Below are positions 453 through 61,840 of a DNA stretch of 64,000 nt, piece by piece. The translations under genes and the position numbers were made by a program. The first letter of the stretch is position 1, and each line of letters starts with the position of its first letter. This DNA comes from an uncultured Gammaproteobacteria bacterium (GTDB lineage: Bacteria > Patescibacteriota > Patescibacteriia > UBA11705 > DATKZF01), in assembly GCA_964411255.1 (NCBI GenBank), contig CAYPKD010000004.1, forward strand, positions 94,037-158,036. The letters run 5' to 3'. Under the pieces are notes generated by a model. The model was not told where the DNA came from. It did no database searches and saw only the letters and a list, made by a program, of their open reading frames with translations.

Positions 453-2120
453 TCATAAATTCAAATCCAAAGATATTTTATATAAATAAAAATTATCAAT
501 TTGTGTGTTCAACTCAAATTTTAAATTCTGATTTATTTTTGTTCTGTTTATAAATTCCATATCATCTGGCGCTAGCATTGAATAATAATAGACTGGTCGT
601 GAATCAATCAAATTTGCCACAAATGGAAAAATTGCATAATTTTCTAAAAACACAATTACTTTTCTTTTTGGAAAAAATATTTTATCAGACCGGTCTGTAA
701 TAATAATGGCATGGTCTTCTGTCTTTTCTAAAACAATATTTCGAGTTTGATTATATTTTTCCAAATTCTGTTTTACTGCAAATAAACTTTCATCTGTTTT
801 TACAAAAACCAAATTAAATGTAAACAAGCTTAAAACTAATAAAAATAAAATTGTTGAACTTGCTTTTATATTAATTCTTACTTTTTCAAAAACCTTCCAG
901 ACTGCGAACAAGCTGTAAGACATAAATGGCAATAGCAAAACAAATATTGGCAGCCAGTATCGCAGATATGAAGTACCAATGGTCAGTTTTGAAGCATCAA
1001 AATGATCATAAAAAACATATCCGCCATAATATATTATTAAATAAGCACTGACAGCTAAAGTAATTAAAAGATAAACAAACTTTTTTGTATAATGTTTTTT
1101 ATCTTTGTAAAAATAAATAAAAAAGGTAGCAATTCCTGGAATTAAAAAAATATTAAACCATGCTAAAAATCTCCAAAAATAATTAATAAACACAGTAATG
1201 CTCTGAACCAGCTTTATGCCAAATGGAAAAATTGCTGAAACTGAAAAGAATGAACTTAAAATTGTAAAAATATTTCCATTTGCAACCTGATCATTTAAAT
1301 CTACACTTAAAAGCCTGGTATTATAACCAAGCTGAAAATAGCCCCCATATAATTCTTTGTTTAAATGCAGAGTCGGTAAAAATGCAACTACTACAAAAAT
1401 TATACCAATTGTGATGCCAGCCCAATTCGCTTTTTTTATGTTGAACAAAAGCAAGGCGAAATATAGCAATGCTACCCAATAAATCTCTGATGGTCTAATG
1501 CTCAAAGCTAAACCTAAAAGCAATCCTGCTATAGCATATGTTTTCAAAACTCTTGGTTTAAAATAATTTTTTATTCCTTTTTTATATTTTATGTTTAACA
1601 AAATAGCCAAAGAAATAATTAACAAATCAACAAATATAACATTGGGCATCAAGCTTTTTGCAGTATAATAAATAAAAATTGGATGAAAAAATAAAAGCAA
1701 TGCGCTAAGCATTGCCACTTCTTTTTCAAAAATTTTGCGTAATCCTAAATACAAAAAAATTGGAGTAATAGCGCTGACTATTGGAATTATAAAAGGAATT
1801 ATATAACAGCCAAATAAATCAGCTATCACTCCTAAAATAATTGGCATGCCTAAAAAATATCCAGGTACAATGTCTCCGTTGGCATTTGAAGTGGCAGATC
1901 TTGGAATGATAACTCCATTTACTTTTAAATTATCAGGTTCAGCAATACCCATTGATCCATTTGAATAATTGCAGGAAAAAACATAATTGGCCGTTTCATC
2001 TGGAGAATTAAAAATTTCCTTTGGCGCGCTAAAAGCTAAAAAGCTGTACACAAAAAAGCATGCAATTCCCACTATTGCCAACACAAATATAGGCTGATTG
2101 TTCTTCACCCACTTTTTCAT
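453..2120 (-). CDS. polytopic membrane protein, possibly a GT-C fold glycosyltransferase (PMT/ArnT-like)
   Basis: 555 aa with >10 predicted TM helices; first periplasmic loop carries an 'SPDETANY' acidic motif resembling GT39/GT83 DE motifs. No closer match recognised. Confidence 0.35.
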   Translation of the reverse strand: MKKWVKNNQPIFVLAIVGIACFFVYSFLAFSAPKEIFNSPDETANYVFSCNYSNGSMGIAEPDNLKVNGVIIPRSATSNANGDIVPGYFLGMPIILGVIADLFGCYIIPFIIPIVSAITPIFLYLGLRKIFEKEVAMLSALLLFFHPIFIYYTAKSLMPNVIFVDLLIISLAILLNIKYKKGIKNYFKPRVLKTYAIAGLLLGLALSIRPSEIYWVALLYFALLLFNIKKANWAGITIGIIFVVVAFLPTLHLNKELYGGYFQLGYNTRLLSVDLNDQVANGNIFTILSSFFSVSAIFPFGIKLVQSITVFINYFWRFLAWFNIFLIPGIATFFIYFYKDKKHYTKKFVYLLITLAVSAYLIIYYGGYVFYDHFDASKLTIGTSYLRYWLPIFVLLLPFMSYSLFAVWKVFEKVRINIKASSTILFLLVLSLFTFNLVFVKTDESLFAVKQNLEKYNQTRNIVLEKTEDHAIIITDRSDKIFFPKRKVIVFLENYAIFPFVANLIDSRPVYYYSMLAPDDMEFINRTKINQNLKFELNTQIDNFYLYKISLDLNL

Positions 2121-2201: not shown

Positions 2202-2361
2202 GGGGGTCTGGGGGGCTGATTGCCCCTTGCAAAACCTCATAATCTTCATCGTCCCTTCGCATTTGAAGCCCCCCAGCGGTTTTTGGTTACTTTTTGGCGC
2301 CAAAAAGTAACTTGGCGCAAGCCAACATTGCAAAGCCCAAAGCAGGCATATGCCTGTATAG
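2202..2361. repeat. structured dispersed repeat, copy A (gggggtctggggggctgattgcccc ... cgcatttgaagccccccagcggtttttgg + palindromic hairpin + ggcgcaagccaacattgcaaag + terminal hairpin)
   Basis: Near-identical to copies at 44944, 55146 and 58147. Long-range stem ctggggggct/agccccccag; perfect palindrome gttactttttggcgccaaaaagtaac; terminal hairpin caggcatatgcctg. Confidence 0.8.
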
Positions 2362-2428
2362 TAAAAATGTAAAATGGGTTCTTCTTTATTTTTATTTATA
2401 ATCAAAAAAGACAAAGCATTGCTTTGCC

Positions 2429-3244
2429 TTAAATTATTCCAGTAGGCGCAATCCGCGCCAAAAATAGATTTCTTTTTTTATCTCCTGCCACTCTAGACCA
2501 AAATTCTCCCTCATGGCAAGTACAGCTACTATCCCAGCCAAACTGAAATTCCTGTTCGAGAACATCTGAGTCATCAATGCCCAGCCTATCTGCTTCGCAA
2601 TAAATCATTTGCTGCAAATGATAAGAAACCTTGCCTTTGCGAGGGCCATGCTCTACTTCTTTAAGACACAAACGAGTTCCCCACTTACCAAACCTTGATC
2701 TAATTTCCTGCTCCTGCTTTTCATCTTTATCATGTCCATAACAGCACGGGCCAATACCACAGCCAACCCAAAACCTTAATTTCTCAGGCGGAGTCTTTAA
2801 AACCATTACCACTTCTTCTAATATTGAATAATTCCATCCTCGTCTAAAAATATTTTTTAATCCTAAACGCACAACGCACATTGCTTTTTGAATTGGATCC
2901 CAGACAACTCCGATCGGGCAATCATAGGTTAAAATTCCGATTCCCACTCGGGTGTCGCGAAAAACAAGACCTGCATCTGAATCATTTTGCGTCCGCCAAA
3001 GACCTGGTCCTAATTGAATCGTATTTGAATCATGAAAATTCGCAACCCCAGTCTTAAATTCTACTCTTGGAAAAAACATTTGTTCAATATTAAGAGCAGA
3101 CATAATTTCTTTTCTTTTCGCCGCTCCTGCTTCAGTTTGCAGCAAACTGCTACTATCTCCATGGCCTTTACCTAAAAAAATATATTCAACTGCTCCGTCA
3201 AAAAGTTTTTTCCGCTCAAAGGCCATTTTTTCTCCTTTCCTCAT
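2429..3244 (-). CDS. YfiH/PgeF-family (DUF152, laccase-domain) protein
   Basis: Motifs 'YDCPIGVV', 'GIGPCCYG' (cf. the IGPCCYEV box of YfiH) and C-terminal 'CTCHEGEFWSR'. 4-nt ATGA overlap with the upstream paralog. Confidence 0.5.
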   Translation of the reverse strand: MRKGEKMAFERKKLFDGAVEYIFLGKGHGDSSSLLQTEAGAAKRKEIMSALNIEQMFFPRVEFKTGVANFHDSNTIQLGPGLWRTQNDSDAGLVFRDTRVGIGILTYDCPIGVVWDPIQKAMCVVRLGLKNIFRRGWNYSILEEVVMVLKTPPEKLRFWVGCGIGPCCYGHDKDEKQEQEIRSRFGKWGTRLCLKEVEHGPRKGKVSYHLQQMIYCEADRLGIDDSDVLEQEFQFGWDSSCTCHEGEFWSRVAGDKKRNLFLARIAPTGII

Positions 3245-4044
3245 CTGGGAAGCAATCTGGCCACAAAAGCATTTCTTGGATATTCTCTGTCAGCATCTCT
3301 GACATTGGACCAAAAATCTCCATAACCATCAGCATTTGGATCTTTCATGCCAAAACATGAAGTACATCTCTTGTCACAGATAATTTTTCCAAAACCTAGA
3401 TTTAATGCTTGTCGATAAATTATTTTCAAATTGTCATGGGCAACATGCAAGCCGCCTTTTCTTGGCCCATATGAAACATTGCCTTCAACCACATCTGGTC
3501 CGTATTCTTTTCTTAAAAATGACATTCTTTCCCTATTCTTATCTCCGTATTTTGGATGCTCGATTGGATAGCCATTGCAGCAAGGGCCAATTCCTCCGCC
3601 AATCCAAAGATTCAACTTTTCTGGAGGCCTACGTAGCTCTTTCACAGCTTGTTCTAAAATTGTATATTCTTTATAATCCTCTCTATAAATATTGCATATG
3701 CCCATATGAATCATGCAAAGCGTATGAAATTCTGGATCATAAATAAGTCCAATATGACAGTCAGCTGTAAAAATTACAATTGCCACTTCTGTATTGTTTC
3801 TGATAATACCACCATCAGCTGAAATCGTTGATATTAAGAGCCCAGTATCAGTAAATACTACGAGAGGTTCATCAATATCAAGCACTGTAGTTGAACATTC
3901 TACAGAAGGAACAAACAAATACTCGACCTGTAATTCCTGCATTAATCTTTGTCTTAATTCTGCAGAACTTGGATCTTTTGGATGAAAATTTCCCCATTTT
4001 CTACCAATTAAATCATATTTAACATATTTGAAAACGGTCTTCAT
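3241..4044 (-). CDS. YfiH/PgeF-family (DUF152) protein, divergent tandem paralog
   Basis: 'TADCHIGLIYDP', 'GIGPCCNGYP', 'CTSCFG...DFWSNVRD'. Same architecture as 2429..3244. Confidence 0.5.
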   Translation of the reverse strand: MKTVFKYVKYDLIGRKWGNFHPKDPSSAELRQRLMQELQVEYLFVPSVECSTTVLDIDEPLVVFTDTGLLISTISADGGIIRNNTEVAIVIFTADCHIGLIYDPEFHTLCMIHMGICNIYREDYKEYTILEQAVKELRRPPEKLNLWIGGGIGPCCNGYPIEHPKYGDKNRERMSFLRKEYGPDVVEGNVSYGPRKGGLHVAHDNLKIIYRQALNLGFGKIICDKRCTSCFGMKDPNADGYGDFWSNVRDADREYPRNAFVARLLPR

Positions 4045-4757: not shown

Positions 4758-5213
4758 TTAGAGTAGTTCTTCTAATTTCTGACTTTCATCATCAGTAACC
4801 AATGAATTGCGTTTAAATATTTCAATTATTTTCCGCTTAAATTTCATTTCCTTTTCTTTATTTCTTTCAATCCTTCTTCCAATCTCAGCAGCTAAATCAG
4901 CCAATTTGTTATCCAAATACATCTTATCTGGATACTGATTTTTTACTGTCATTTTAAAATCAGATAATTCAGTTTTAACTTGACTTAGACCACCTTCAAC
5001 TTTATCAAGCCTGCCTTCAACTTTATCAAGCCTGCCTTCAACTTTATCAAGCCTGCCTTCAACTTTATCAAATCTTTTTCCCACCTCTAAAAATCCAGTT
5101 TGCACAGCACCAGCTAAATTATCAATTTTTTCATTGGTTTTCTTAAATTCTTGTTTTATTTCCTCATCCATATATATAATTTTAGCACACAAAATCAATT
5201 TAGTAAATTTCAT
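4758..5213 (-). CDS. coiled-coil protein with heptad tandem repeat (GRLDKVE)x4
   Basis: 151 aa; protein repeat 'GRLDKVEGRLDKVEGRLDKVEGRLDKVEG' encoded by a 21-bp DNA tandem repeat. Confidence 0.5.
   Translation of the reverse strand: MKFTKLILCAKIIYMDEEIKQEFKKTNEKIDNLAGAVQTGFLEVGKRFDKVEGRLDKVEGRLDKVEGRLDKVEGGLSQVKTELSDFKMTVKNQYPDKMYLDNKLADLAAEIGRRIERNKEKEMKFKRKIIEIFKRNSLVTDDESQKLEELL
4991..5075. repeat. 21-bp tandem repeat x4 (coding, within the 4758..5213 CDS)
   Basis: ccttcaactttatcaagcctg repeated in tandem. Confidence 0.8.
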
Positions 5214-7248: not shown

Positions 7249-9339
7249 ATGATAAAAAATCTGACATTTCTTTTTATAAATCTTGCACTTACAATATTTG
7301 TTTGTATAAATTTTTTTGTCGAACAAAACTTTTATATACACATAATTGCATCAGGCATTTTTTTAATTTTAAATACTTATTTATTTGCCTCAATTTTTTC
7401 AAAATATAATTTTAAATCATGGATTTTATCTATTTTACTTATAATAGGCATCATAATTATCCCAGGATCAATAATCTATTATTTTTATCAGATTAATTCA
7501 TATGTGATAAGTATTCTGGTCGTATTAATCTTTGGATTATCAACATTTTTTTGGTATAAAAGCGATACACCATTATTAAAGCCACATATTCCAAAATTAA
7601 AACTGACTTTTCTTGAATTCTTAACCATGGTCAGCTATTTAATTTCTATTGGCTTTATTCTTTTTATTTTAATTAAATCCAGATCAGATATTGCTGTCAG
7701 AACGCCCTGGGCTTTAATTGACAAAAGAATATTTGTCCTTTATTTTACTTCAACCTTTATTCTGATTGTTTTATTTTGGCAGACAAAATTAAATTCATTT
7801 TGGCAAAAAACATTTTTATCAATGCATTTTTTTGTTTCTTTTTGTGTTGCATTTATTGTTTACAAATTAGGATTTGGCTATGATCCTTTTATTCATCAAA
7901 AAACAGTAGAAATAATCAGCCAAGATGGTTTTATCTCCCCAAAACCACTATATTATCTTGGGCAATATACACTCGAAGTATTGGTGCACAAATTATTTTT
8001 AATTCCAATTGACTGGATTGATAGATTATTTGTCCCTGTTTTAGCAGCAATCTCTCTGCCAAGCATAATTATTTTTTCCATAAAAAAAATAAATCCAATT
8101 GCTGTGTTAATCTTTTTAGCTATCCCTTATTCATTTTTAGCATTTACCACCCCTCAGAATCTAACTTTTTTCTTTAGTCTTTTATTAATATTTCTGGCTT
8201 ATCGATTTTTAATTTATAAAGACATTTCCTGGATTTGGCTTGGTCTATTATCCTTAATTATACTGACCATTCACCCATTAACCGGCCTTCCAATGCTTTT
8301 ATTTTCCCTGGCCTTGCTTATTTTTAGATATAAAGCCAGTAACCTAATAAGCAAAATATCAAAAACCCTTTATTTAATATTGTCTGCAATAATTATTCCT
8401 TTTGCATTTGTCTTATTAAATTTAACACGCGGCTATCAAATCAATTTCCGATTTGATTGGAATGTAATCACTTCAGATTTATCAAGTTTTTTTCAAAACA
8501 TGTTTTATTTAAAAAATAATTTTAGACAGATTTATGATCTGATATACTTTTATGGATTAAATTTAAAATTCTTTATAATTATTTCGATTATTGTATTTTT
8601 AATTTTATTTTGGAAAAAAGGCAGCCAGATGTTTGGTCATAAAATAAAAACTCAGCCCAAACATCTGGCTGCCATCTTTCTTGGGTCTTTTATTATCACT
8701 GGAATAAATTATTTAATCTTAAAAAACTTCTTTGTCTTTGAAGAATTAATTTATTATGAAAGATCTGATTATGCATTACGACTAATAACTTTAATGTTTT
8801 TATTTTTAATCCCTCTGATTCTAATATTTATTTCAAAACTTATTGATTTTAAAAATAAAAGAAAAATAATTGTAATTTCAATTTTTATCCTCTTGAGTTT
8901 AATAATTTCAGCCAGCTTTTACCTCAGCTATCCCCGCTATGACAATATTCAGGCCAGCCGGGCATTAAATGTAAGTAAATATGATTTTAATGCTGTGCGA
9001 TATATTGCAGATAATGAAAATCTACCATACATAGTGCTCGCCAATCAAAATACTTCTGTGGCTGCAATAAAGCTATACGGATTTGAACCTGTTTATAATA
9101 ATTATTTTTACTATCCAATTCCAACAGGTGATGAATTATATCAAATTTATCTAAAAATGGTTAATGATCAACCAAGAATTGAATACATTAATGAAGCTAA
9201 ACAATTGACCAGAATCAGCACGGTTTATTTTGTTCTGCCAAAATACTGGGATAATTTCAATCAAATTAAGTCAGCAGCCGAGCAGATTGCAATTGAACAT
9301 CATTCTATTGATGAGCAAATTGAAATATTTAAATTTTAG
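7249..9339 (+). CDS. large polytopic membrane protein (possible GT-C-type glycosyltransferase / DUF2079-like)
   Basis: 696 aa, ~14 TM segments, extremely AT-rich coding region. Confidence 0.45.
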   Translation: MIKNLTFLFINLALTIFVCINFFVEQNFYIHIIASGIFLILNTYLFASIFSKYNFKSWILSILLIIGIIIIPGSIIYYFYQINSYVISILVVLIFGLSTFFWYKSDTPLLKPHIPKLKLTFLEFLTMVSYLISIGFILFILIKSRSDIAVRTPWALIDKRIFVLYFTSTFILIVLFWQTKLNSFWQKTFLSMHFFVSFCVAFIVYKLGFGYDPFIHQKTVEIISQDGFISPKPLYYLGQYTLEVLVHKLFLIPIDWIDRLFVPVLAAISLPSIIIFSIKKINPIAVLIFLAIPYSFLAFTTPQNLTFFFSLLLIFLAYRFLIYKDISWIWLGLLSLIILTIHPLTGLPMLLFSLALLIFRYKASNLISKISKTLYLILSAIIIPFAFVLLNLTRGYQINFRFDWNVITSDLSSFFQNMFYLKNNFRQIYDLIYFYGLNLKFFIIISIIVFLILFWKKGSQMFGHKIKTQPKHLAAIFLGSFIITGINYLILKNFFVFEELIYYERSDYALRLITLMFLFLIPLILIFISKLIDFKNKRKIIVISIFILLSLIISASFYLSYPRYDNIQASRALNVSKYDFNAVRYIADNENLPYIVLANQNTSVAAIKLYGFEPVYNNYFYYPIPTGDELYQIYLKMVNDQPRIEYINEAKQLTRISTVYFVLPKYWDNFNQIKSAAEQIAIEHHSIDEQIEIFKF

Positions 9340-10270: not shown

Positions 10271-10376
10271 ATAACGCTAAGAGTTAAAGATTGAAAGTTC
10301 TTGCCAAAGGCGGGCCCGCCCCTGGCGGGAAAAAGTAAAAGACAAAAGTTAAAATATTAACCAAATCACAAAATAC

Positions 10377-10405
10377 ATTATATACAATTTTTCGATAATT
10401 GTCAA
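10377..10405 (-). promoter_or_regulatory. consensus sigma70 promoter (TTGACA-17-TATAAT) driving tRNA-Thr and rpmG
   Basis: Minus-strand reading cttgacaattatcgaaaaattgtatataatg; perfect -35 and -10 hexamers. Confidence 0.55.
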
Positions 10406-28065: not shown

Positions 28066-28374
28066 ATGAAAATAAAAAATATAGAAGATCTTGATGCTTG
28101 GAAGGAAGCAATACTCTTTTGTGAAATGATCTATAAGTTAGCAAACAAACTGCCAATTAAGCATCTACGTGCAAGTGCTAGAGGAGTTGCTGCCAACATT
28201 GCCGAAAGATTTGGTAGATATTTCTATAAAGAGAATCTACGTTTTTATGGTATTGCAAAAGGTTGCTTAAATGAAGTTAAGAGTGATTTAAATATCTGTC
28301 TGCGAATAGAATATATAACTCAAGAAAATTTAATGAGTATATTTTTCAAGCAGATAAGGTTGAATCAATACTAA
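28066..28374 (+). CDS. four-helix-bundle protein (23S rRNA IVS protein / Avd family)
   Basis: 'LDAWKEAILFCEMIYKLANKLP...LRASARGVAANIAERFGRYF...FYGIAKGCLNEVKSDLNIC' follows the TIGR02436/PF05635 family pattern. Confidence 0.7.
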   Translation: MKIKNIEDLDAWKEAILFCEMIYKLANKLPIKHLRASARGVAANIAERFGRYFYKENLRFYGIAKGCLNEVKSDLNICLRIEYITQENLMSIFFKQIRLNQY

Positions 28375-29547: not shown

Positions 29548-29958
29548 ATGAACAATAACAAACAACCAATTAAAAGCTTTGATGACTTATGGGTTTATAC
29601 TGAAAGTTATAATGCCTCAATTATTATCTTCTCAGAAATTCTTCCAAAATTACCAGCTGAAGAAAAATTCGATTTAAAGGATCAAATACGAAGGGCCTAC
29701 AAAGCAGTTCCACGATTGATTGCCGAGGGATATGCTAAAAGACATCAAAAGGCAGGGTTTCAAAAATACTTGGACGATGCTAACGCAGAATCCAATGAAA
29801 TGATTGTTTGCTTACGGCAATGCAGGGACTTGTATAGTGAATTTATTGATAAAGATATATGTAAAAAACTTATAGAAATCTACACAAAATGCAGCAAAGG
29901 ACTCTGCAGCCTTTCCAAAACCTGGATGAGTTTTTCTAAACTTCCCCCAAAAAAATAA
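29548..29958 (+). CDS. four-helix-bundle protein (23S rRNA IVS / Avd family), second copy
   Basis: 'DQIRRAYKAVPRLIAEGYAKRH' matches the family core (RAA-SIP-NIAEG-GR); 136 aa. Confidence 0.65.
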   Translation: MNNNKQPIKSFDDLWVYTESYNASIIIFSEILPKLPAEEKFDLKDQIRRAYKAVPRLIAEGYAKRHQKAGFQKYLDDANAESNEMIVCLRQCRDLYSEFIDKDICKKLIEIYTKCSKGLCSLSKTWMSFSKLPPKK

Positions 29959-35143: not shown

Positions 35144-36337
35144 CTAGAACTTTTCATTTCTCAAGCAATACATCATCTGCCCCAAACTCAATCCATAATC
35201 TCCCCTCTCAATATTTTTAGACATAATTACTCCATTGTTTTTCGCAACTTGACTCATAATCTTATTATTTGCCATTCCTCCTCCAAAATATATTGGTAAA
35301 TTTGAATCAGCTTTTTTCGCAATATTAATTAGCCCTTCAATAACATATTTTTGAACAGTAGCTGCCAGTCTTCCCTTATCCTTATCCAAATTATCCAAAA
35401 GCCATTCAAAAAGATAAGAGATATTTAACTCATATTGTTTTTCAATTTCTCTGTTTCTCTGTTTCTCTGTCTTTGTGTTTTTCTGCTCTTCTGTTTCTCT
35501 GTCTTTGTGTTTTTCTGTTATCCTAGGCTCTAAATCAAACGGATCTGCTGATTTCTTCTCCAGTAAATCAACGGGCTCATGTTTATAATTTCTTTCATTT
35601 TTACAAAGGCCAAGTAAAACTGAGGCTGCATCCAGTATTCTTCCAGTACTACTAGTTTCTACTGAATTAAATTTTTGTTCGTACATTTTTACAAATAAAT
35701 CAAACTCCTCCTTTTTAAAAAACTTTTCAAAAATCGACCGTATTTCAGCCGGCTTTTTTATTTTTAAAAGTATTGAAAGAAGCATTCTGGCCGGCTCTTT
35801 TATTGATAAATCCGCACCGCATAATAATTGATTTTCCAAATGCCCAATTCTTTTTATTTTATCTTTGCTTTTTTCTTTTTGATTTTGACTGATAAGGAAC
35901 ACTTCACCTCCCCAAATCTTTCCATCAAGACCATACCCTGTACCGTCTGCTGCTATACCTATAAACTTGGAGAAGCTGAGTGTGGGTATAGAAGCTAGAA
36001 TAGTGTAATCAAATAATACTGAATAAACATGCGCAATGTGATGTTGTACTTTTTCAAGCTTTGCGTCATATTTATCAGCTAATTCTTCTCCCAATTTTGA
36101 GGTTTTATATTCTGGATGCAGATCAACACATATTATATCTGGAACAAAACTATTTTTTTCCAAAAATTCAAATATAATCTTTTTATAATTTTCAAAATTA
36201 TTTTCTTCAATCAAATCACCTAGATCTTCTTGGTAATAAATCTTTCCTTTATTATAAACACAAAAATTCCCAGCTGACTCAGGTCCTAAGGCTAGGATTT
36301 TTTGATTCTTATTAATCGTCACGTCAAACCCTTTCAT
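35144..36337 (-). CDS. HypF-like carbamoyltransferase, Kae1/TsaD-like domain only (no acylphosphatase, Zn-finger or YrdC domains)
   Basis: 'VQHHIAHVYSV' (the HHxAH metal motif of the HypF Kae1-like domain), 'IGIAADGTGYG', 'GGGMANNKIM...GDYGLSLGQMMY'. Contains a charged low-complexity insert encoded by a tandem DNA repeat. Confidence 0.6.
   Translation of the reverse strand: MKGFDVTINKNQKILALGPESAGNFCVYNKGKIYYQEDLGDLIEENNFENYKKIIFEFLEKNSFVPDIICVDLHPEYKTSKLGEELADKYDAKLEKVQHHIAHVYSVLFDYTILASIPTLSFSKFIGIAADGTGYGLDGKIWGGEVFLISQNQKEKSKDKIKRIGHLENQLLCGADLSIKEPARMLLSILLKIKKPAEIRSIFEKFFKKEEFDLFVKMYEQKFNSVETSSTGRILDAASVLLGLCKNERNYKHEPVDLLEKKSADPFDLEPRITEKHKDRETEEQKNTKTEKQRNREIEKQYELNISYLFEWLLDNLDKDKGRLAATVQKYVIEGLINIAKKADSNLPIYFGGGMANNKIMSQVAKNNGVIMSKNIERGDYGLSLGQMMYCLRNEKF
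35450..35520. repeat. imperfect ~35-bp tandem repeat x2 inside the hypF-like CDS
   Basis: ttctctgtttctctgtctttgtgtttttctg repeated; encodes 'TEKHKDRETEEQKNTKTEKQRNRE'. Confidence 0.7.
35972..36003. repeat. solo copy of the cassette-2 inverted-repeat motif inside the hypF-like CDS
   Basis: gaagctgagtgtgggtatagaagctagaata versus 29511..29541 gaagctgggtgtaggtttagaagctagaata (28 of 31 identical). Confidence 0.6.
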
Positions 36338-44798: not shown

Positions 44799-44943
44799 CT
44801 GAAAATAAAGTATAACAGATTGTATAAATTGTCAAATTTTGCTTAATCTATAAAACCATCTGTTTTATTTCTATATTTTTCAGTCTCTTATGAATATCGG
44901 GACAAAATCTTTTTATTCAGAACATCTTTTCATGTATAGCAAC

Positions 44944-45101
44944 GGGGGTCTGGGGGGCTGATTGCCCCTGGCGCGATAACAGAACTCAATCGAAGCTTCG
45001 CATTTGAAGACCCCCAGCGGTTTTTGGTTACTTTTTGACGCCAAAAAGTAACTTGGCGCAAGCCAACATTGCAAAGGGCAAAGCAGGCTTTGCCTGTATA
45101 G
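44944..45101. repeat. structured dispersed repeat, copy B
   Basis: Same core as copy A; variable loop differs; terminal hairpin caggc-ttt-gcctg; flanked by 'gtatag' on both sides. Confidence 0.8.
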
Positions 45102-45154
45102 GAAAAAATAATATTTGAATTTTAAAAAGCCTGCATTAAAAATGCAAACTCTTT

Positions 45155-48351: not shown

Positions 48352-48526
48352 ATGTTTGAAGCTAATTTATGTACTTTTATTATATCAAAAAAATGCTATT
48401 TTCCAAAATAATAAGGTAATTTTAAAAAAAATTTTACCTGTAATTATCCAAGATTGAATAGCTATACTATTACTTTAACTAAGGTTTTAGCTTTTTTATT
48501 ACAGCTCAATCATAATCATCCCTTTC

Positions 48527-48660
48527 GTGGGGTCTGGGGTGGCCACTCAGCGCCATATAAAAAAGCGTCAAATCGTATTCATTGTGATAGCGATTTGGCC
48601 ACCCCAGAACTTTTTGGTTCTTTTTGGTTACAAAAAGAACAAGGCCGCGCGCCTAGCGCA
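48527..48660. repeat. structured dispersed repeat, diverged copy E with compensatory substitutions
   Basis: Long-range stem is now ctggggtggcc/ggccaccccag; hairpin is gttctttttg-gttac-aaaaagaac; both structures retained despite sequence change. Confidence 0.65.
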
Positions 48661-48777
48661 CCATGAAAAAACATACATTAATGAAAATTCATATAAAGGG
48701 TTTTATAAGAAAGTAAGCATACCCCATAAAAAAAACACTATTTATCAAAATTAAATAGCATCTTTGTAATTTATCGT

Positions 48778-53411: not shown

Positions 53412-55055
53412 TTATTCAAAAGTTACGCCTAATAAATTTATACTATCATCATCTTCGAGCACAATCTCAAATTTTTCCATAAATACTTGCATATCTGTTT
53501 TCAAATCTACCAATTTATTCTCCTGATCAAGAATTCTGGCTGATAAATCACTGACCAGCTCTCCATATTGATACAACTCATCTCCCAGTAAATCATCAAG
53601 CACATTTAAATCATTGGTTGTGCCAATAGCTTCTTTATTCAAATTCTGCAGCTGCATTTGTATTTCACTTAGCCTTTTTTCCAGACTTTCATAATTTTTA
53701 TAATAATCTTCCAGTTCATCCTTTGAATAAAAAGCCCGGTCTTTTTGAGACTGTTCAATTTTTTCTAATTGGGCTAAGAGTTGTCCAAGGTTTTGCTCAG
53801 TATTGCTAATCCGTAGATTTATTTCCTGCATTTCAGCTTTTAAATTTTTTAAGGTAATATCTCCATTATTTTCAAAAGTTTCTCCATCTTGCTGTAATTC
53901 ATCTGCAATATTTTCAATTGCCGTCTCGATCCGAGGCTTTGAAATCCTGGTATTCTGAAATATTCTATTTATTAAAAAGTCTTTTTGATTTGCATCAAAT
54001 ATATTGTTTAAATAAAAATTCTTAATTTGCTCGTCCTGCATTAAATTTTCCTTTATCTGTGGGTCAAATGCTTTTATTCTTTGAATAAATGGAAGTATTT
54101 GCGGATCAACATCCATTTTATTTATAATTGCCAACGCCTGATCTTTTCTGCCACTTTCAATCAATGCCTCTACTTCTAAAAGCCTTTTTATTTTTATATT
54201 TCTGACAATTTTTTCTTTTTGATATTTATCAAAAGCTGTCATTAATGAAATTCTCTCGCTTAATTTCTTTAAATTATAAAATTTGTCTCCGGGAAGCGGA
54301 CCGACCTGATTTAAAATACGCTTTCGTCTTTTAGAAATTTCATCTTTAAAATCTGAATCTCTTTCTAAATTATTTTTCACCCAGGATTTTTTTCTCTCAT
54401 CAATCCTTAATTTTCTTTTCTGAAATCGTGATCTTTTTAATGTTTCTATTTCATCAGCTGACGCTGTCTCATCAATTTTTACTGGCTGATAAATCAAAAC
54501 ATCTTCTTCATTGACTTCAACCTCTCCTTCTTCGTCAGAAACCTGGACTGTATTTTCAAAAACCGCCACATTTACTTCATCACCTAAATAAGAAACGTTA
54601 AATGAAGTGCCACGCACAGTAGCTACCACATTATCAGCCTCGACTTCAAAAGCCGCATCTGGGTGTAAAAGCTCCAATAAACGAGACCAGACTTGGCCTT
54701 CTTTTAAATTAACTTTAACTTTTGTCAAAAGAGGTGAATTCTCATCAATCACTCCCTTGGTAATTTCAATTTCAGTATTTTCATCTAGAATAATCTCCTG
54801 AGTATCGTAAAACACTATTTTAGCTTTTGAATTCTCGTCAGTTTTCACACTGTCACCCTGCATTAAAGGCATGTCTCCGGAGACTTTAATATAGCCTTCA
54901 CCGTCTGATTTGTAATAAACACTGCCCTTTTCCTCATAAAGTAAAATGGCAGGATCTTCAAGGTCAATTGAGCTTGCATAAGCTGTCATTAATGCCCAGC
55001 CGCCAACTCCAGCTATAATAATAATAATTAGGATAAATATTATAGATTTTTTCAT
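53412..55055 (-). CDS. FecR-domain membrane protein with a long coiled-coil C-terminus
   Basis: N-terminal TM; 'VSGDMPLMQGDSVKTDENSKAKIVFYDTQEIILDENTEIEI' FecR-like beta-sandwich; directly upstream of and abutting the CHASE2 cyclase. Confidence 0.55.
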   Translation of the reverse strand: MKKSIIFILIIIIIAGVGGWALMTAYASSIDLEDPAILLYEEKGSVYYKSDGEGYIKVSGDMPLMQGDSVKTDENSKAKIVFYDTQEIILDENTEIEITKGVIDENSPLLTKVKVNLKEGQVWSRLLELLHPDAAFEVEADNVVATVRGTSFNVSYLGDEVNVAVFENTVQVSDEEGEVEVNEEDVLIYQPVKIDETASADEIETLKRSRFQKRKLRIDERKKSWVKNNLERDSDFKDEISKRRKRILNQVGPLPGDKFYNLKKLSERISLMTAFDKYQKEKIVRNIKIKRLLEVEALIESGRKDQALAIINKMDVDPQILPFIQRIKAFDPQIKENLMQDEQIKNFYLNNIFDANQKDFLINRIFQNTRISKPRIETAIENIADELQQDGETFENNGDITLKNLKAEMQEINLRISNTEQNLGQLLAQLEKIEQSQKDRAFYSKDELEDYYKNYESLEKRLSEIQMQLQNLNKEAIGTTNDLNVLDDLLGDELYQYGELVSDLSARILDQENKLVDLKTDMQVFMEKFEIVLEDDDSINLLGVTFE

Positions 55056-55145
55056 AAAAATAAGTTTATTAGAAGTACATATAATTTACCTAATTTTATT
55101 CAATTTGACAACTTTTATTTAGAACTTTCAACCGTTTATAGAAAC

Positions 55146-55334
55146 GGGGGTCTGGGGGGCTGATTGCCCGATGCGCGATACCTGCACATAATCAATACTT
55201 CGCATTTGAAGCCCCCCAGCGGTTTTTGCCCAGCACCAAAACAAAGTTTGGTGCTGGGTCGGCGCAAGCCGAGAACCGTATGGTTCTGGGCAAGTCAACA
55301 TTGAAAAGCCCAAAGCAGGCTCCAGGCCTGTTTT
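55146..55334. repeat. structured dispersed repeat, copy C with a compensatory hairpin swap and an inserted hairpin
   Basis: Core identical; central palindrome replaced by cccagcaccaaa-acaaag-tttggtgctggg; extra hairpin agaacc-gtat-ggttct; ends caggc-tccag-gcctg+TTTT. Confidence 0.8.
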
Positions 55335-55446
55335 GAAAAAAGTGACCTTTGCGTTATTAATCTTTAAAATAATTTAGTAGCTATTGTTGTTTCACAAAAA
55401 AACCAGATGTAAATCTGGTTTTTTATATATCATTTGTATAAATCTT

Positions 55447-55863
55447 TTACTTTATCTCAAACTGCTTTTTCACTGGCTCAGCATTATCAGTATGAATTTT
55501 TAACTCAACTTCATATCTACCAGTTGGCCAGCCTGCAGGCGGCGCAGTTAAAGCTGAATAAATACTGGAAGTTACTTCTTCTATATCCACAGTGACTGAA
55601 TCAATTTCAACAACTGGATCTTCATCTAAATAACGCCAATAAAATGTTACCTGCGTCCCCTCTGGTGCATTATTTAATACCGCAGTCACATAGATTTCCT
55701 CTAAATCAGTTGCAAATTCTGCTTGGTCCTCAGCGCATAAATCTCCCTCTGGAATCTCGCACATTTTTACATCAGTTAAATTTGCAGTTGATACTTCACA
55801 AGATGATGCCATGATAAACACACAACTGGCAATCAAAAACAAGGATAAAATTTTTGTTTTCAT
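55447..55863 (-). CDS. small secreted/lipoprotein, hypothetical
   Basis: Signal peptide with 'ASSC' lipobox-like site; acidic. Confidence 0.45.
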   Translation of the reverse strand: MKTKILSLFLIASCVFIMASSCEVSTANLTDVKMCEIPEGDLCAEDQAEFATDLEEIYVTAVLNNAPEGTQVTFYWRYLDEDPVVEIDSVTVDIEEVTSSIYSALTAPPAGWPTGRYEVELKIHTDNAEPVKKQFEIK

Positions 55864-55909
55864 AATTTTTCATTAGTAGTTAATCTATATATATTTTATC
55901 AAAAAAATA

Positions 55910-56737
55910 TTATTGATTCAATGCATCAATCTCTTCTGTATCCTCTATATCTGTCCAGTTTTGCAATACTCTGCCATAGACAGAGATTGTCCAATATTCA
56001 TAATTTGATCCAGTAACACCTTGTTCCTCATCCCCTGCCAATCCTGTAAAGCAGGCCCATTCAATTCTATTATTAACAAACTCAACCCTGCAAGGATAAA
56101 CTTCTGCTCCTGTAGCAGTCTTATGCAATGTTTCAACATTATAAACTTCATAAACATCATCTTCATTTACAACTAATAAATTTCTTTGTTCATATGATAA
56201 TAACTTATTGGCCTTGGCTCCATGGGGCCAAAAATATCCAGCAGCTAAATCCAGACCTTCATCTAAATGGCAGACATAAAATGCATAAAAATCTGATGAA
56301 TGTCTGTACTGAGCATATTCAGCCAATTTCTTTTCTAGATCTTGAATATATTTTGTGGTATAAATATCCAAATCCATTTGAGCTCTCATTTTTTTATTGA
56401 CAATTAATGAACTCAATAAATCTCCGCCATATGTTTGGCCGTTTGCCATGCCAATACAGTCTGAAGAGGCATAGCCTTCAAATCCAAAATAATCATCAGA
56501 CGGGAATTCAATAGCCCATTGTTTATAAATGTCTTCAACAGGCTTTTTCTTTGGTTTTGTCCGTTCCTCAGTGGCAACTGAAGTCTGTTCTTCAACTTCT
56601 AAAACATCAACAGGAGTGGTGACAGTATCTTGCTCAATCTGCTTTTCTTTTTTAAAACGATCAAAAATGTCAGTTACGCTGCATCCGCTTAAAAAAATTA
56701 AGCATGACATTAAGATAAATATTAAATATTTTCTCAT
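55910..56737 (-). CDS. lipoprotein, hypothetical
   Basis: 'LIFLSGCSV' lipobox; 275 aa. Confidence 0.5.
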   Translation of the reverse strand: MRKYLIFILMSCLIFLSGCSVTDIFDRFKKEKQIEQDTVTTPVDVLEVEEQTSVATEERTKPKKKPVEDIYKQWAIEFPSDDYFGFEGYASSDCIGMANGQTYGGDLLSSLIVNKKMRAQMDLDIYTTKYIQDLEKKLAEYAQYRHSSDFYAFYVCHLDEGLDLAAGYFWPHGAKANKLLSYEQRNLLVVNEDDVYEVYNVETLHKTATGAEVYPCRVEFVNNRIEWACFTGLAGDEEQGVTGSNYEYWTISVYGRVLQNWTDIEDTEEIDALNQ

Positions 56738-56930
56738 ATTTAATTCTTAATTTAATAATCCAGAATTTAGGTTTCAGAATACATGATCTAGGACACTTTC
56801 ATTATAACATTTTGCTAAATTTTAATAAAATGTCTATTCAATCATGAAACAATAAAAAATAGGATTGACAAATACCCAAAATCAATTTATTATTAAACAT
56901 CAAGTGTTCTTTTTATTAAAGGAGGGTAAA

Positions 56931-57470
56931 ATGGGCACAGTCACAGCCATGATTCATGTGGGTCGAACCCATCAAAACCATTTAGGCATATTGCCAGCCG
57001 ATTGGCTATATTTACATGAAAACAGCCGCCCGAGCTGGCATTTACAGCCATTAAGTATAATGGGCAGAAATAGACAACATATTGATATCACCTGGGTTCC
57101 TACTCTAAAACATATGCTTGATGATGCAATGCTGATGATTGCAATTTTTATACTTAAAGATGAAGCAATTATTAAAAAAGCAAAACAATGCTTTAAAAAA
57201 GATGACCTTTCGTTTATTGAACTAAACAGAGATATTAATAAACAAGATTTGTATCAACTTCGCAGAAAATGCAGAGCGTTGAGAAACAGATATAAGATTG
57301 TTGTTACACTCCTTGGCAAATCTTCTTTATCAAGGCATTGCCCTGTACTTGAAAAGTATAAAATGGATGTTGAAGTTTGTATTCCTGCCTTTGATAGACA
57401 TTTTTCTCATTGGGAAAAGAAAACAGTCACTTCAGGTTCTCTGGATATTCAAAGAACGGAGGCTCCATGA
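56931..57470 (+). CDS. hypothetical protein
   Basis: Start moved to the ATG after RBS aaggaggg; TTGACA-17-TATTAT promoter at 56868-56896; stop overlaps the next start (ATGA). Confidence 0.45.
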   Translation: MGTVTAMIHVGRTHQNHLGILPADWLYLHENSRPSWHLQPLSIMGRNRQHIDITWVPTLKHMLDDAMLMIAIFILKDEAIIKKAKQCFKKDDLSFIELNRDINKQDLYQLRRKCRALRNRYKIVVTLLGKSSLSRHCPVLEKYKMDVEVCIPAFDRHFSHWEKKTVTSGSLDIQRTEAP

Positions 57471-58006
57471 AAATCGTACTTGGCTCAAAAAGCAAAATAA
57501 AAGCTGAGGCTCTCAGACAAGCCCTGACTGAAGTACTGGAATTGATTGACGAAAAGTCGAACATTGAACTGGAGCTTACAGAAGTGAAATCCTGGGTGAG
57601 ACCTCAGCCAATGAAGGCCGATGAAGCTCTCAGGGGCGCAATGGAAAGAGCCGGACGCTCTCTGCGGGCTTGCCCAGAAGCTGAACTGGCAATAGGGATT
57701 GAAAATGGCGTGCACAGATTTTCTGACATGATTAATGAATATTGGATCGATTTTGCTTTTGTGGTTGCCCTTACTCCGCTTATGATAAAATATGTCAGCA
57801 CAAGCTGTGGAATTCAGTTTCCGACAAATATTGTATTTTTATCCGAATCCAAACAAGCCCAGGATACTTGCGGACAAATTATGGAAAAATTAAAGATGGT
57901 CAAGGATGGCAAAGATCCTCATTCATCTTTGACTTTTGGCGCATTGTCCAGAAAAGAATCGCTTATTCAGCCACTCAAGGTGGTTTTAATACAAGCATTA
58001 TCATAA
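57467..58006 (+). CDS. YjjX-like inosine/xanthosine triphosphatase (NTPase_I-T / DUF84), putative
   Basis: 'KIVLGSKSKIKAEALRQAL' and 'ELAIGIENGV' resemble YjjX 'VVCATTNPAKIQAILQAF' and 'FWVAIEAGI'; RBS ggagg; track ORF start trimmed. Confidence 0.45.
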   Translation: MKIVLGSKSKIKAEALRQALTEVLELIDEKSNIELELTEVKSWVRPQPMKADEALRGAMERAGRSLRACPEAELAIGIENGVHRFSDMINEYWIDFAFVVALTPLMIKYVSTSCGIQFPTNIVFLSESKQAQDTCGQIMEKLKMVKDGKDPHSSLTFGALSRKESLIQPLKVVLIQALS

Positions 58007-58008
58007 AA

Positions 58009-58034
58009 CCCGCTTTCAGAAAGCGAGTTTTTTA
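58009..58034 (+). terminator. rho-independent terminator
   Basis: cgctttc-agaa-agcg+TTTTTT. Confidence 0.5.
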
Positions 58035-58062
58035 TTTCAGATCAATTATTATATTCCCTATC

Positions 58063-58085
58063 GTGGGGTCTGGGGTTGCCATTCA
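58063..58085. repeat. 5' fragment of an E-type copy of the structured repeat
   Basis: cgtggggtctggggttgcc matches the 5' end of copy E; no 3' partner strand present. Confidence 0.5.
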
Positions 58086-58146
58086 ATTATATAAATAAAA
58101 ATTCACACATTGATGAAGATCAGAACATTTTTTCATTTATAGCATC

Positions 58147-58305
58147 GGGGGTCTGGGGGGCTGATTGCCCCCGGAGCGATCCTCAAACTTAATCGTTGCT
58201 TCGCATTTGAAGCCGCTCAGCACTTTTTGGTTACTTTTTGGTGCCAAAAAGTAACTTGGCGCAAGCCAACATTGCAAAACCCATAGCAGGCTCCAGGCCT
58301 GTTTT
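58147..58305. repeat. structured dispersed repeat, copy D
   Basis: Core as copies A/B; long-range stem partly degraded (agccgctcagc); ends caggc-tccag-gcctg+TTTT as in copy C. Confidence 0.8.
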
Positions 58306-58377
58306 GAAAAAGATTAAATTTATTTTTTCCTAAATAAAAAACCCTGATACTATAGGGATATAAAACTCGTAATTCAA

Positions 58378-59349
58378 TCATTTATTCCAAAGATTTATAT
58401 AAGACTGAAATTTTTTAGCTATCAAATCCTGAGCTTTTGATTTTGTAATCTTTTTTTCTTTATATTTTATCAAAGCATCTAAAAATATTGTCCGGCCAAT
58501 AGCAAATCCAATAATCTGATCAAACTTTTTGGCTGCCAAAAGCCATTGCTTAACTTTTTTATCATCCTCTCCCCTGCCTAAAAATATTATTGACGAGTTC
58601 TTTGGAATTACTTTTAAAATTCTCTTCCAGCATTTATTAGAAAATCCTTCCATTTTCCAAATATCAACTTTTACTTTTTGTTTTATTTCTTTAATTGCCG
58701 CAACTGTTCTGATCAATCGTAAAGTCTTTTCATAATTTCTTTCAGTATTTACCAGTTTTAAATCTTTGTCAGTTGCTGGAACTAAAAGCTCAATTAATAA
58801 TTTATAATTATTTTTTTTGCAAAAATCACTTAAACGCTTTAATTTTTTAAGCTGCACTTTATTTATTTTCTTATTTATAGGATTATACCGAACCAATGCT
58901 TTAGCATAATCTGGCTTAAATTTATTGATATGCCTGCCAAAAGCACTTCCATATTCAAAACCATATTGTTTTTGCCCGCTTTTCTCAGTGGTCAAACAAA
59001 TCTGAATTTTTCGCTTTTTTGCATCTTTTAATACTTTCGCACCAAATTCTTCATCAACGAGAATGGCCAAATCGTCTTTTTTTTCATACTTTTTATACAC
59101 CTTTAAAAATGCCTGATAAATCAATTCTTTCAGTTTTTCTAGCTCTTTATGCTGCTTTTTTGTTATTTTTTTAGTACCAATTAAGTGCTTTTTAAATGAG
59201 CCCCGATGGTCAAAAGGCATGATTATAAGCTGTTTTTTCATATTATTCGTATTATACCATATTTCATTCGATTTTTGCCTATTGACAAAATTCTCATTAT
59301 TAGCTAGTATGTAAATTATTAAATATCCATGTTGATTGCAGTAAAGCAC
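58378..59349 (-). CDS. hypothetical protein, possibly a DUF2090 / class I aldolase-like TIM-barrel
   Basis: N-terminal 'IIMPFDHRGSF' and C-terminal 'IIGFAIGRTIF' resemble the IolC C-terminal/DUF2090 family; assignment uncertain. Confidence 0.35.
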   Translation of the reverse strand: MLYCNQHGYLIIYILANNENFVNRQKSNEIWYNTNNMKKQLIIMPFDHRGSFKKHLIGTKKITKKQHKELEKLKELIYQAFLKVYKKYEKKDDLAILVDEEFGAKVLKDAKKRKIQICLTTEKSGQKQYGFEYGSAFGRHINKFKPDYAKALVRYNPINKKINKVQLKKLKRLSDFCKKNNYKLLIELLVPATDKDLKLVNTERNYEKTLRLIRTVAAIKEIKQKVKVDIWKMEGFSNKCWKRILKVIPKNSSIIFLGRGEDDKKVKQWLLAAKKFDQIIGFAIGRTIFLDALIKYKEKKITKSKAQDLIAKKFQSYINLWNK

Positions 59350-59622: not shown

Positions 59623-60381
59623 TTACTCTATTGAAATTGAAAAAATTGCTTGTGTATATCCAGTATCTTTTTCCTTATCTATTCCAAATGAAATCTTTTT
59701 CCCAGAGTCAAAATTTATATCTGTTTTAATCAAGCCTCTTTTTGCACTTAATTCGGTTGAAAATGATTTAATAATACCAAGTGTCTCTTTTTCTAAAATA
59801 TCATCTGGCTCAATGTTTGATATAATATACCAATTAAATTCTTCATGTTGTTCGGTGATACGATGTATTGAACCGACTAATAATCCTTTAATTCCTTCTA
59901 CTTCCAATATAATTTCCCAAGATGCTGGCAACCATGGTCTTCCTTTCTTGTCTTTCTTTCTTAATTCCTTTAGATCAAACTCTATAGCTTCTAAATAGTC
60001 TTTATTTAAACTTAATAATAACTCATAGGTAGCTTCATCACTTAACTTCACTTCTGAAACATTTTTTTTACGTATGCGTTCCTGATTAGTATCCTCCAGA
60101 AGATCAATTGGCTCTGTATTGAAGGCTGGTTCTGCACTTTCTTGTCTTTTTCTTTTCTTTTCAATTTTATCCTTTATCTTCATTAACTCATTCTTATAAT
60201 CCGTATAAAAATCCAAAGCCTCTTTCAACTTCCCAGCTTTTTCAGCAGCCACAGCCTTATCCATGATCTTTCCCAGAAATTCCTTTTCTTCATCAGTTAA
60301 AGGCACACGCTTAACCTCACTCCGCCGCGGGCGGGCCATTTGGAGTTGGGATTCGAGAGATTGGGGTTTTTCTGACTTCAT
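59623..60381 (-). CDS. paralog-family protein 1 (shared N-terminal helical domain, unique C-terminus)
   Basis: N-terminus 'PQSLESQLQMARPRRSEVKRVPLTDEEKEFLGKIMDKAVAAEKAGKLKEALDFYTDYKNEL' shared with three neighbours. Confidence 0.55.
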   Translation of the reverse strand: MKSEKPQSLESQLQMARPRRSEVKRVPLTDEEKEFLGKIMDKAVAAEKAGKLKEALDFYTDYKNELMKIKDKIEKKRKRQESAEPAFNTEPIDLLEDTNQERIRKKNVSEVKLSDEATYELLLSLNKDYLEAIEFDLKELRKKDKKGRPWLPASWEIILEVEGIKGLLVGSIHRITEQHEEFNWYIISNIEPDDILEKETLGIIKSFSTELSAKRGLIKTDINFDSGKKISFGIDKEKDTGYTQAIFSISIE

Positions 60382-60393
60382 ATCTTTTACATG

Positions 60394-61086: not shown

Positions 61087-61109
61087 TAATCATTTGTAAT
61101 TGAGAATAA

Positions 61110-61823: not shown

Positions 61824-61840
61824 ATATTTTAGGTATAAAA

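Follow-up and report, generated by a model that had tools for sequence, protein, structure and literature searches.

A dispersed intergenic repeat

Five copies (A to E) and one fragment (F) of a non-coding repeat lie between the ORFs of the window, the term used here for the whole 64,000-nt stretch of DNA that was analysed. All are on the + strand, at 2202-2361 (A), 44944-45101 (B), 48527-48665 (E), 55146-55334 (C), 58063-58085 (F) and 58147-58305 (D), in agreement with the loci, the common orientation and the intergenic position given in an earlier note on this DNA. The sequence GGGGTCTGGGGKKSY occurs six times in the window, each time on the + strand, while 0.02 occurrences are expected from shuffles; GGCGCAAGCCAACATTGCAAA occurs three times against an expectation of zero. 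Copies A to D are alignable over approximately 170 nt and copy E over the 5' two-thirds. The extent of ~160 to 190 nt first proposed proved too short, as a semi-conserved leader of ~25 to 37 nt (..TCAGAAC..TTATAGCAnC) and a tail of ~15 to 30 nt (TATTG-A6-..ATTTAAA) are also common to the copies. One element is ~200 to 240 bp in length. The elements are ~50% G+C in a window of 28 to 38% G+C. The ORFs that overlap the copies had been regarded as artefacts and we concur, because they are short, use TTG or GTG as start codons and do not keep the same frame and strand among the copies. The window, part of a 364-kb JGI metagenome contig, comes from a bacterium of the Patescibacteria (candidate phyla radiation, CPR). 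The best named homologues of the phosphoglycerate mutase and the CHASE2 cyclase encoded in the window are from Patescibacteria (Magasanikbacteria, Uhrbacteria, Falkowbacteria).

The window has several other features. Two PF05635 genes (23S rRNA intervening-sequence/Avd-like four-helix-bundle) at 28066-28374 and 29548-29958 on the + strand are interspersed among hypC, hypD and hypE. Inverted repeats lie on both sides of the second gene (GGCTGGAAGCTGG.. upstream and CCAGCTTCCAGCC downstream); the upstream repeat is found again at 35972-36002 and, as a weaker match, at 54649-54679. The second gene with its inverted repeats resembles a small selfish cassette of its own. At 61817-63004 on the - strand, in ORF 61841-63205, a coding repeat of 111 bp (37 aa) is present in nine tandem units. 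The 454-aa repeat protein has weak BACON/beta-propeller matches, and related 240-nt repeats are found in the neighbouring ORFs 60146-63212. Shorter tandem repeats include an 8-bp unit (TGTTTCTC-like, 7+ units, 35436-35523) within ORF 35144-36337, called HypF_C, and four units of 21 bp (4974-5078) within ORF 4758-5213. At 10271-10400 on the - strand, a tRNA-Thr(UGU) gene has a canonical TTGACA-N17-TATAAT promoter approximately 110 nt upstream and an unusually long leader with a GC-rich hairpin (cccgccaggggcgggcccgcc).

Anatomy of the element

The anatomy is described in the + strand order of copy B, which extends from 44910 to 45119 and scores 119.8 bits with the covariance model introduced below. 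The leader (44910-44943) is composed of a T-run, ATTCAGAAC.. and TATAGCAAC, and is followed by an unpaired GGGGGU (44944-44949). The long stem P1 (CUGGGGGGCU/AG(C)CCCCCAG; 44950-44959/45008-45017, with one mismatch) contains a conserved internal loop with GA facing GA, a bulge of UUU and UGC/GCA, and is capped by a poorly conserved apical region. The latter had been described as a variable loop of 28 nt; it is weakly conserved, with the consensus ..GGCGCGATA..AACT.AATCA.TG, and is not hypervariable. Three variable nucleotides (NNN) and an invariant U5 come next (45018-45025), then P2, a 13-bp palindrome (GGUUAC-UUUUUGG-xy-CCAAAAA-GUAACU; 45026-45053), and P3, a small hairpin (UUGGC-GCAA-GCCAA; 45053-45066). 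A conserved single strand, CAUUGNAAAG (AAYAUUGNAAAG), which in copy B reads CAUUGCAAAG.. (45067-45082), separates P3 from P4 (GCAGGC..GCCUGU; 45083-45097), and an A-rich tail (45098-45119) completes the element. Approximately 25 single-stranded or core nucleotides are invariant.

Copy A (2202..2374, 120 bits) has a degenerate leader and the same order of parts: GGGGGU at 2202-2207, P1 at 2208-2217/2267-2276, NNN and U5 at 2277-2284, P2 at 2285-2312, the P3 GNRA hairpin at 2312-2325, P4 at 2342-2357 and the A-rich tail to ~2374. Copy D (58120..58321, 119.8 bits) has a leader at 58120-58146, P1 at 58153-58162/58211-58220 with the 3' strand mutated to AGCCGCUCAG, CAC and U5 at 58221-58228, P2 at 58229-58256, P3 at 58256-58269, P4 at 58286-58302 and a tail to ~58321.

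The other copies are mosaics. Copy C (55113..55345, 78.9 bits) has the leader at 55113-55145, P1 at 55152-55161/55210-55219 and CGG with U5 at 55220-55227. As had been noticed before, its palindrome is swapped for an unrelated perfect hairpin (55228-55259) and an extra hairpin is present, which splits P3 (55260-55300); P4 (55315-55331) and the tail follow. Copy E (48492..48665, 71.5 bits) represents a diverged subfamily, in which the reported switch of the long stem to CUGGGGUGGCC/GGCCACCCCAG is indeed found (48534-48544/48597-48607). Its leader is at 48492-48528, AAC and U5 are at 48608-48615, P2 (GGUUCUUUUUGG-UUA-CAAAAAGAAC) is at 48616-48640 and a GC hairpin is at 48647-48659. Fragment F (58028..58086) consists of an E-type leader and GGGGTCTGGGGTTGCCATTCAA and is truncated after the P1 5' strand. 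It lies directly after the terminator of the gene at 57410-58006, and the same fragment is present at L015, one of the related loci on other contigs and genomes that are designated here by L-numbers.

Relatives and distribution

Approximately 25 additional copies were recovered from related metagenome contigs and two other CPR genomes. An exact 22-mer from the element was absent from 185,579 species-representative genomes. Scans with a degenerate gapped pattern (GGGGTCTGGGGKKSY-N35-65-CCCCAG-NNN-TTTTTG) identified copies in two MAGs, four near-identical ones in a MAG labelled Saccharibacteria and a single one in another from Patescibacteria, as well as one Acetobacteraceae locus and 18 loci on related metagenome contigs. 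The viral contigs scanned with this pattern gave no match, nor did BLAST against plasmids and phages. A covariance model built from 27 copies and used as a search found further copies that lack the exact motif, namely one at L018 928-1046 and a second, inverted copy each in L007 and L010. Three stretches were devoid of copies in this search: 22 kb of L032, a 63%-related genome; the part of the window between 16 and 38 kb; and the 9.6 kb to the left of the window, which also has no mobility gene.

Comparison with Rfam 15, as the earlier note had advised, gave only tRNA matches at gathering thresholds in the window and 18 related loci. At E<=10 nothing in 55100-58400 overlaps copies C or D, and no ribozyme family is matched. 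Neither the literature search nor the annotated records yielded a description that matches the element.

The Acetobacteraceae locus (L011, chromosome OZ255625.1) has three copies of GGGGGTCTGGGGGG, at 877-988 (-), 3186-3230 (-) and 3264-3316 (+), each followed by a short CUGGGG..CCCCAG hairpin. An AT-rich box is located 6 to 8 nt upstream of each in a genome of 65% G+C, and U7 follows one of them. These units are either a distant relative of the core module or a case of convergence.

Several contigs end inside the element, at the point where its invariant part starts (L031 1-80, L034 1-83, L023 14-129 and L015 4773-4893). Because independent metagenome and Logan contigs end in this manner, the repeat fragments assemblies of this population.

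Covariation of the helices

Compensatory changes had been proposed to support the secondary structure, and pair counts on two sets of copies bear this out, exceeding every shuffle and slid control. Among 27 copies 92.7% of cells pair and 12 pairs are changed on both sides (shuffles 0/500); among 22 full-length copies 95.2% of cells pair and 16 pairs are changed on both sides (shuffles 0/500). Slid controls paired 37 to 57% of cells across both sets, and 43 to 57% for the 27-copy set. The shuffle statistics overstate independence, since many of the sequences are closely related. RNAalifold recovers P1 and P2 unguided. P3 covaries among the 22 copies (UA13/CG8, GC18/CG3), and its loop is GCAA in 16, GUAA in 4, ACAA in 1 and GCCA in 1. 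The loop remains GNRA where the stem flips from GGC/GCC to GCC/GGC. The outer half of P2 covaries freely (GC15/CG6, UA17/CG4/AU2), and no change was ever seen in the U5 linker, the U5:A5 tract or GGGGU; CCCCAG-NNN-UUUUU is invariant across all subfamilies. A G.U pair closes P2 in 21/27 copies and P4 in 12/22. In some copies helices are inserted into loops or replace them.

The three variable nucleotides covary with the apical loop of the palindrome. The first two are complementary to two nucleotides of the P2 loop in 51 of 54 cells, where the shuffled mean is 31.9 and none of 20,000 shuffles reaches 51. The pairs are N1:y = CG16 AU4 GC3 UA2 and N2:x = GC12 AU11 GU2 UA1, and six Watson-Crick dinucleotide combinations are represented (CG:CG, CA:UG, AA:UU, GA:UC, UG:CA, CU:AG). 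In copy E AAC pairs with GUU of the P2 loop. Two copies outside of the training set, L018 928-1046 and the inverted L007 copy, follow the same rule, both with AAC and GUU. The centre of P2 is flipped in the E-type copy of L015 (L015E) and the pairing is lost there. The order of strands is that of an H-type pseudoknot (S1-5'/S2-5'/S1-3'/S2-3') with covariation for both helices: four pairs of S2 (=P2) have double changes, and the two pairs of S1 are each represented by three to four pair types. Covariation between NNN and the P2 apical loop thus implies a putative H-type pseudoknot, but a pseudoknot of 2 to 3 bp onto a hairpin loop of 2 to 4 nt would require the top of P2 to open. With this order of strands the U5 linker would pass through the deep groove of P2, next to the U5:A5 tract. 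Because all three tracts are invariant, we infer a possible U.A-U triplex, telomerase- or SAM-II-like.

Resemblances to HDV-like and hammerhead ribozymes, retrons, tmRNA-like molecules and Tn3 inverted repeats were inspected by eye and dropped, as the defining motifs are missing. A group IIC intron was rejected because GUGYG and domain V are absent from the aligned copies on both strands and the element has ~200 nt compared with >=600 nt. Integron attC sites were likewise rejected, RYYYAAC..GTTRRRY core sites being absent from the aligned copies on both strands.

Genomic position

The element fills the gap from a terminator to the -35 box of the following gene, and a neighbouring gene is separated from the element by its own terminator. 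The 3' end of the element faces a gene 3' end in approximately 26 of 29 informative cases. Where the neighbours are in tandem they are on the strand opposite to the element in 17 cases vs 2 to 3. A stricter rule, that the element is always downstream of a same-strand terminator hairpin, was discarded because it is true for only about one-third of the copies. The C-skewed strand carries the G-rich side of the element in the window and at ~26 of 30 loci, and at L027 the orientation tracks the skew and not the two neighbouring genes. The orientation bias may be due to replication or to transcription.

Mobility and constraint

Comparison of one site in genomes that are 83 to 90% identical shows an empty and a filled state. 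L012 has a 39-nt gap in which the terminator abuts the -35 box, and L017 has a 351-nt insert, in which the element is accompanied by two additional hairpins and a second repeat module. The two sites give no sign of a target duplication. The comparison demonstrates mobility, or at least insertion or deletion, of the element. In the slot of copy C the genome of L015, ~83% identical, has an E-type element instead, and the polymorphic segment runs from ~55128 to 55412. Single, tandem, truncated and inverted copies all occur. The repeat is thus multi-copy, non-coding and polymorphic for presence at orthologous sites, which are the general properties of mobile repeats. No gene for a transposase, integrase or reverse transcriptase (RT) is near any copy, and the ORFs that adjoin same-strand copies encode no nuclease or transposase.

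The second repeat module (GCCATTAAACGCC..CTTCAGTGAAGGATGGCACACnCCAAnTGACG..T-run) is found directly 3' of the element in four related-contig loci (L016 ~790-880, L017 ~1770-1866, L018 ~2150-2240 and L020 ~3740-3830) and has no Rfam match. The remnant of a frameshifted IS1595/ISXO2-like transposase C-terminus is located at L032 ~8100-8340 (-), with a PF12762 match at E=0.006 that is below cutoff. This remnant occupies the intergenic slot orthologous to that of copy C, which suggests that the slot is an insertion hotspot.

In its core, copy A matches the L023 ortholog at 99 of 99 sites. Identity at this locus is lower elsewhere, at 92% in the adjacent gene, 90% in the intergenic DNA together with the leader and 80% in the apical loop. 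With 10% divergence, a run of 99 unchanged sites would have a probability of ~3e-5, which indicates constraint on, or homogenisation of, the resident copy. At locus D the whole intergenic block, including F and D (window ~57930-58270 vs L015 4550-4893), is 93 to 97% identical to L015, while the adjacent gene is 76% identical. This block is likely a recent recombination tract that ends in the repeat, and it is uninformative on the core specifically.

Tests of a MITE and of a transcribed unit

The first reading of these copies was a candidate ncRNA or MITE. The MITE half of it is not supported, as terminal inverted repeats (TIRs) and a regular target-site duplication (TSD) are both lacking. The leader is no more similar to the reverse-complemented tail of its own copy than to that of different copies (mean score 18.1 within and 18.9 between), and CAGACCCC has no occurrence in the window. 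Only the Saccharibacteria-labelled MAG has GGGGTYYG..CRRACCCC termini, which come from two tail-to-tail copies. The 'tatag' flanks of copy B that had been put forward as a possible TSD are a conserved internal motif, because the leader and tail in which they reside are common to the copies. Most copies are without flanking direct repeats. Irregular direct repeats flank two copies, one of 29 nt at L026 (a duplicated terminator) and one of 40 nt at L018 928-1046 (the last nucleotides of the convergent gene). A 'direct repeat' at L008 was set aside as a tandem partial copy of the element.

The hairpin followed by UUUU at the end of copies C and D had been taken as the mark of a transcribed unit. 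The endings themselves (GCCTGTTTTG) are real, but as a general mark they do not hold, because only about one-third of the copies have them; the remainder end in GCCUGUAUAG or GCCUGUAUUG. Behind P4, UUUU is confined to C, D and a small number of other copies, and in all subfamilies P1 leads into U5 after three nucleotides, where a U tract within 0 to 2 nt of a GC-rich stem would be expected of an intrinsic terminator. A terminator consensus scan called neither P1 nor P4. The leader has no good match to a sigma-70 promoter although the genome uses canonical ones, and alternative-sigma motifs sought by eye were unconvincing. Two further ideas were rejected: that of an uptake signal, because the 8-9-mers CTTTTTGG/CCAAAAAG are not enriched outside the elements, and that of a guide RNA, because the apical loops are without complementary targets in the window.

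A candidate structured RNA on a mobile repeat

We favor a structured RNA carried on a mobile, lineage-specific, mosaic non-coding repeat of Patescibacteria, and assign this reading a probability of roughly 0.45. Elements are gained, lost and exchanged in the short gaps between terminator and promoter, one orientation being retained, and the fold of one strand is conserved, not a pair of transposon ends. The predicted fold would begin with the unpaired GGGGU and the long P1 with its tandem-GA/UUU internal loop, and the 3-nt and U5 linker would lead to the 13-bp P2, the apical loop of which may pair back to the linker in the H-type pseudoknot. The U5 linker could lie in the groove of the invariant U5:A5 tract. 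GNRA-capped P3, the single strand AAYAUUGNAAAG and P4 would complete the structure. The + (G-rich) strand would be made as an RNA of ~170 to 250 nt that acts at the RNA level, most likely as a self-contained structured transcript that may also block antisense transcription through P1 and U5, while the element spreads as a non-autonomous repeat.

The comparisons show the family and its spread, the helices, the covariation of the pseudoknot, the insertion polymorphism and the orientation bias. That the folded molecule would be RNA we infer from features characteristic of RNA and specific to the + strand: the GNRA loop, the closing G.U pairs, the K-turn-like loop, the insertion of helices, and the pseudoknot with its U and A tracts. 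Several observations run against this interpretation. The leader is unconvincing as a sigma-70 promoter, although the genome has canonical ones, and the hairpin with UUUU ends only some copies. In silico both strands fold about equally, and a strand test that counted G.U against A.C within helices, without the P2 base pair, was not discriminating (11 vs 8). The long perfect palindromes and the flip/flop of the P2 loop at L015E are typical of the DNA level, and conservation at locus D covers the whole intergenic region, which argues for recombination rather than selection there.

The palindromes and the flip/flop would also suit the closest competitor of the structured RNA, a pure DNA repeat of the REP/REPIN or IS200/IS605-PATE kind, whose single-stranded hairpins would be recognised and cut by a single-copy HUH/Y1 (RAYT- or TnpA-like) enzyme with its gene at another place in the genome. 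GGGGT and the CTGGGG..CCCCAG hairpin would then play the role of GTAG and the REP palindrome, and RNA would be irrelevant. We consider this possible but rather unlikely. It would account for the absence of TIRs and of a regular TSD, for the extragenic position adjoining gene 3' ends, for single, tandem and inverted-pair copies and for a strict orientation bias that correlates with GC skew, L027 following the skew over its neighbours. The left boundary is usually after a T-run and ATYCAR and the tail ends in TTRAA, which may be read as like IS200/IS605 cleavage motifs. However, the GNRA loop and the G.U pairs belong to the G-rich strand, which coincides with the C-skewed strand and is not the lagging-strand template used by elements of the IS608/ISDra2 type. 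We know of no role for a conserved GNRA loop, a K-turn-like loop or a loop-to-linker pseudoknot in HUH substrates. A tblastn search of 330 kb with an approximate IS200 TnpA query gave no match to a Y1 transposase, a weak test given that such a gene would be single-copy, and no transposase adjoins any copy.

A domesticated cis element, selected locus by locus as a polar insulator or terminator cassette between convergent or tandem genes, is less probable still. P1 followed by U5, and P4 followed by a U-rich stretch, would halt antisense transcription from the neighbouring promoter region. The exact placement between terminator and -35, the facing of gene 3' ends, the invariance of CCCCAG-NNN-UUUUU in all subfamilies, the core kept in the orthologous copy and a similar GGGGGUCUGGGGGG..CCCCCAG-C-U7 unit in the unrelated Acetobacteraceae genome are all consistent with such a cassette. 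But a U tract 3 nt past the stem and a 50-nt apical region of P1 are atypical of intrinsic terminators, and P2, P3, the pseudoknot and the conserved single strands would be superfluous for one. Related genomes also do without the element, at the same site in L012 and altogether in the L032 sequence searched.

A new self-cleaving ribozyme or a SINE-like RNA-copied element is very improbable. Tertiary structure would here serve cleavage or priming, and target-primed insertion would have left its traces in the A-rich tail and in the direct repeats at L026 (29 nt) and L018 928-1046 (40 nt). Such a reading fits a compact element rich in tertiary motifs with ~25 invariant nucleotides and a partial copy at L008 that looks 5'-truncated. 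Against it, no ribozyme family is matched at E<=10, no RT is near any copy, most copies and the empty/filled site are without duplications, and fragment F is truncated at the 3' and not at the 5' end.

Returning to the structured RNA, an extension of it, which we regard as doubtful on present sequence comparisons, would make the element an undescribed class of compact tertiary-structured RNA. This class would be confined to CPR, present in tens of copies per ~1-Mb genome and under selection, perhaps as a ribozyme or RNP scaffold or as a component of RNA-dependent mobility. Its putative hallmarks would be the K-turn-like loop, the GNRA hairpin and the pseudoknot, which a U.A-U triple helix would clamp.

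Comparison with known repeats and RNAs

The family behaves like other dispersed, non-autonomous repeats of mosaic build, a category already represented by REP/BIME, BOX, ERIC and MITE/PATE elements. REPs, BIMEs and REPINs are also short GC-rich hairpin repeats at gene 3' ends, are extragenic and mosaic, have many copies that may be single, tandem or in inverted pairs, and place an invariant motif before a palindrome with no TIR and no TSD. Measured against the REP/REPIN-RAYT definition, GGGGU with CUGGGG..CCCCAG, the extragenic position and the inverted doublets are analogous, and the unit, of ~200 nt, has extra modules. The element is 5 to 8 times longer than a REP, has GGGGU in place of GTAG, and adds four helices, a pseudoknot and a GNRA loop. 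No RAYT was found here, and the hosts are CPR rather than Proteobacteria.

BOX, ERIC and Correia elements are similar in being modular non-coding intergenic repeats of 100 to 250 bp that have a predicted fold, are polymorphic among strains and are thought to act on transcripts. They share no sequence similarity with the element, and the TIR and the TA or fixed TSD of Correia elements and typical MITEs are absent here. To our knowledge no loop-to-linker pseudoknot is documented in these families.

The IS200/IS605 PATEs and TnpB omega-RNAs have in common with the element the lack of TIR and TSD, hairpins near the ends, strand specificity, a short target motif and no coding capacity. The orientation of the element with respect to GC skew is, however, opposite to the IS608/ISDra2 rule, although the rule could hold for the complementary strand. 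There is no Rfam match to IS605-orfB or HEARO and no tnpA or tnpB was seen; unlike an omega-RNA, the element has no variable guide beside a scaffold, and its apical loops have no targets in the window. The element does not have the defining marks of a DDE-type MITE, and its strand bias is contrary to the IS200/IS605 rule.

Among structured RNAs the nearest likeness is to the pseudoknots of telomerase and of the SAM-II and preQ1-II riboswitches, which have the same succession of S1 5' strand, U-rich loop 1, stem 2 with junction-proximal U5:A5, and S1 3' strand. The three homopolymer tracts do not vary, and the helix pairs beside them covary. The likeness is one of structure alone, as S1 is 2 to 3 bp, loop 3 is 1 to 2 nt and stem 2 is 11 to 13 bp in the element. 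No riboswitch or telomerase model gave a match, and unlike a riboswitch the element is not upstream of genes in the sense orientation.

Implications for Patescibacteria

CPR/Patescibacteria have very small, streamlined genomes, for which few repeats and few known regulatory RNAs are usually reported. One would therefore not expect to find a 200-nt element kept at many loci, least of all one whose helices, pseudoknot and ~25 invariant nucleotides persist across distant CPR lineages. The repeat also breaks up metagenome assemblies and seems to mark recombination tracts between related populations. As a single-stranded DNA substrate, the element would imply a mobilising enzyme that has yet to be described. 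As an RNA, it would represent a new structured RNA class in a phylum group with almost no experimentally known ncRNAs, and may provide a natural bacterial example of a pseudoknot/triplex module.
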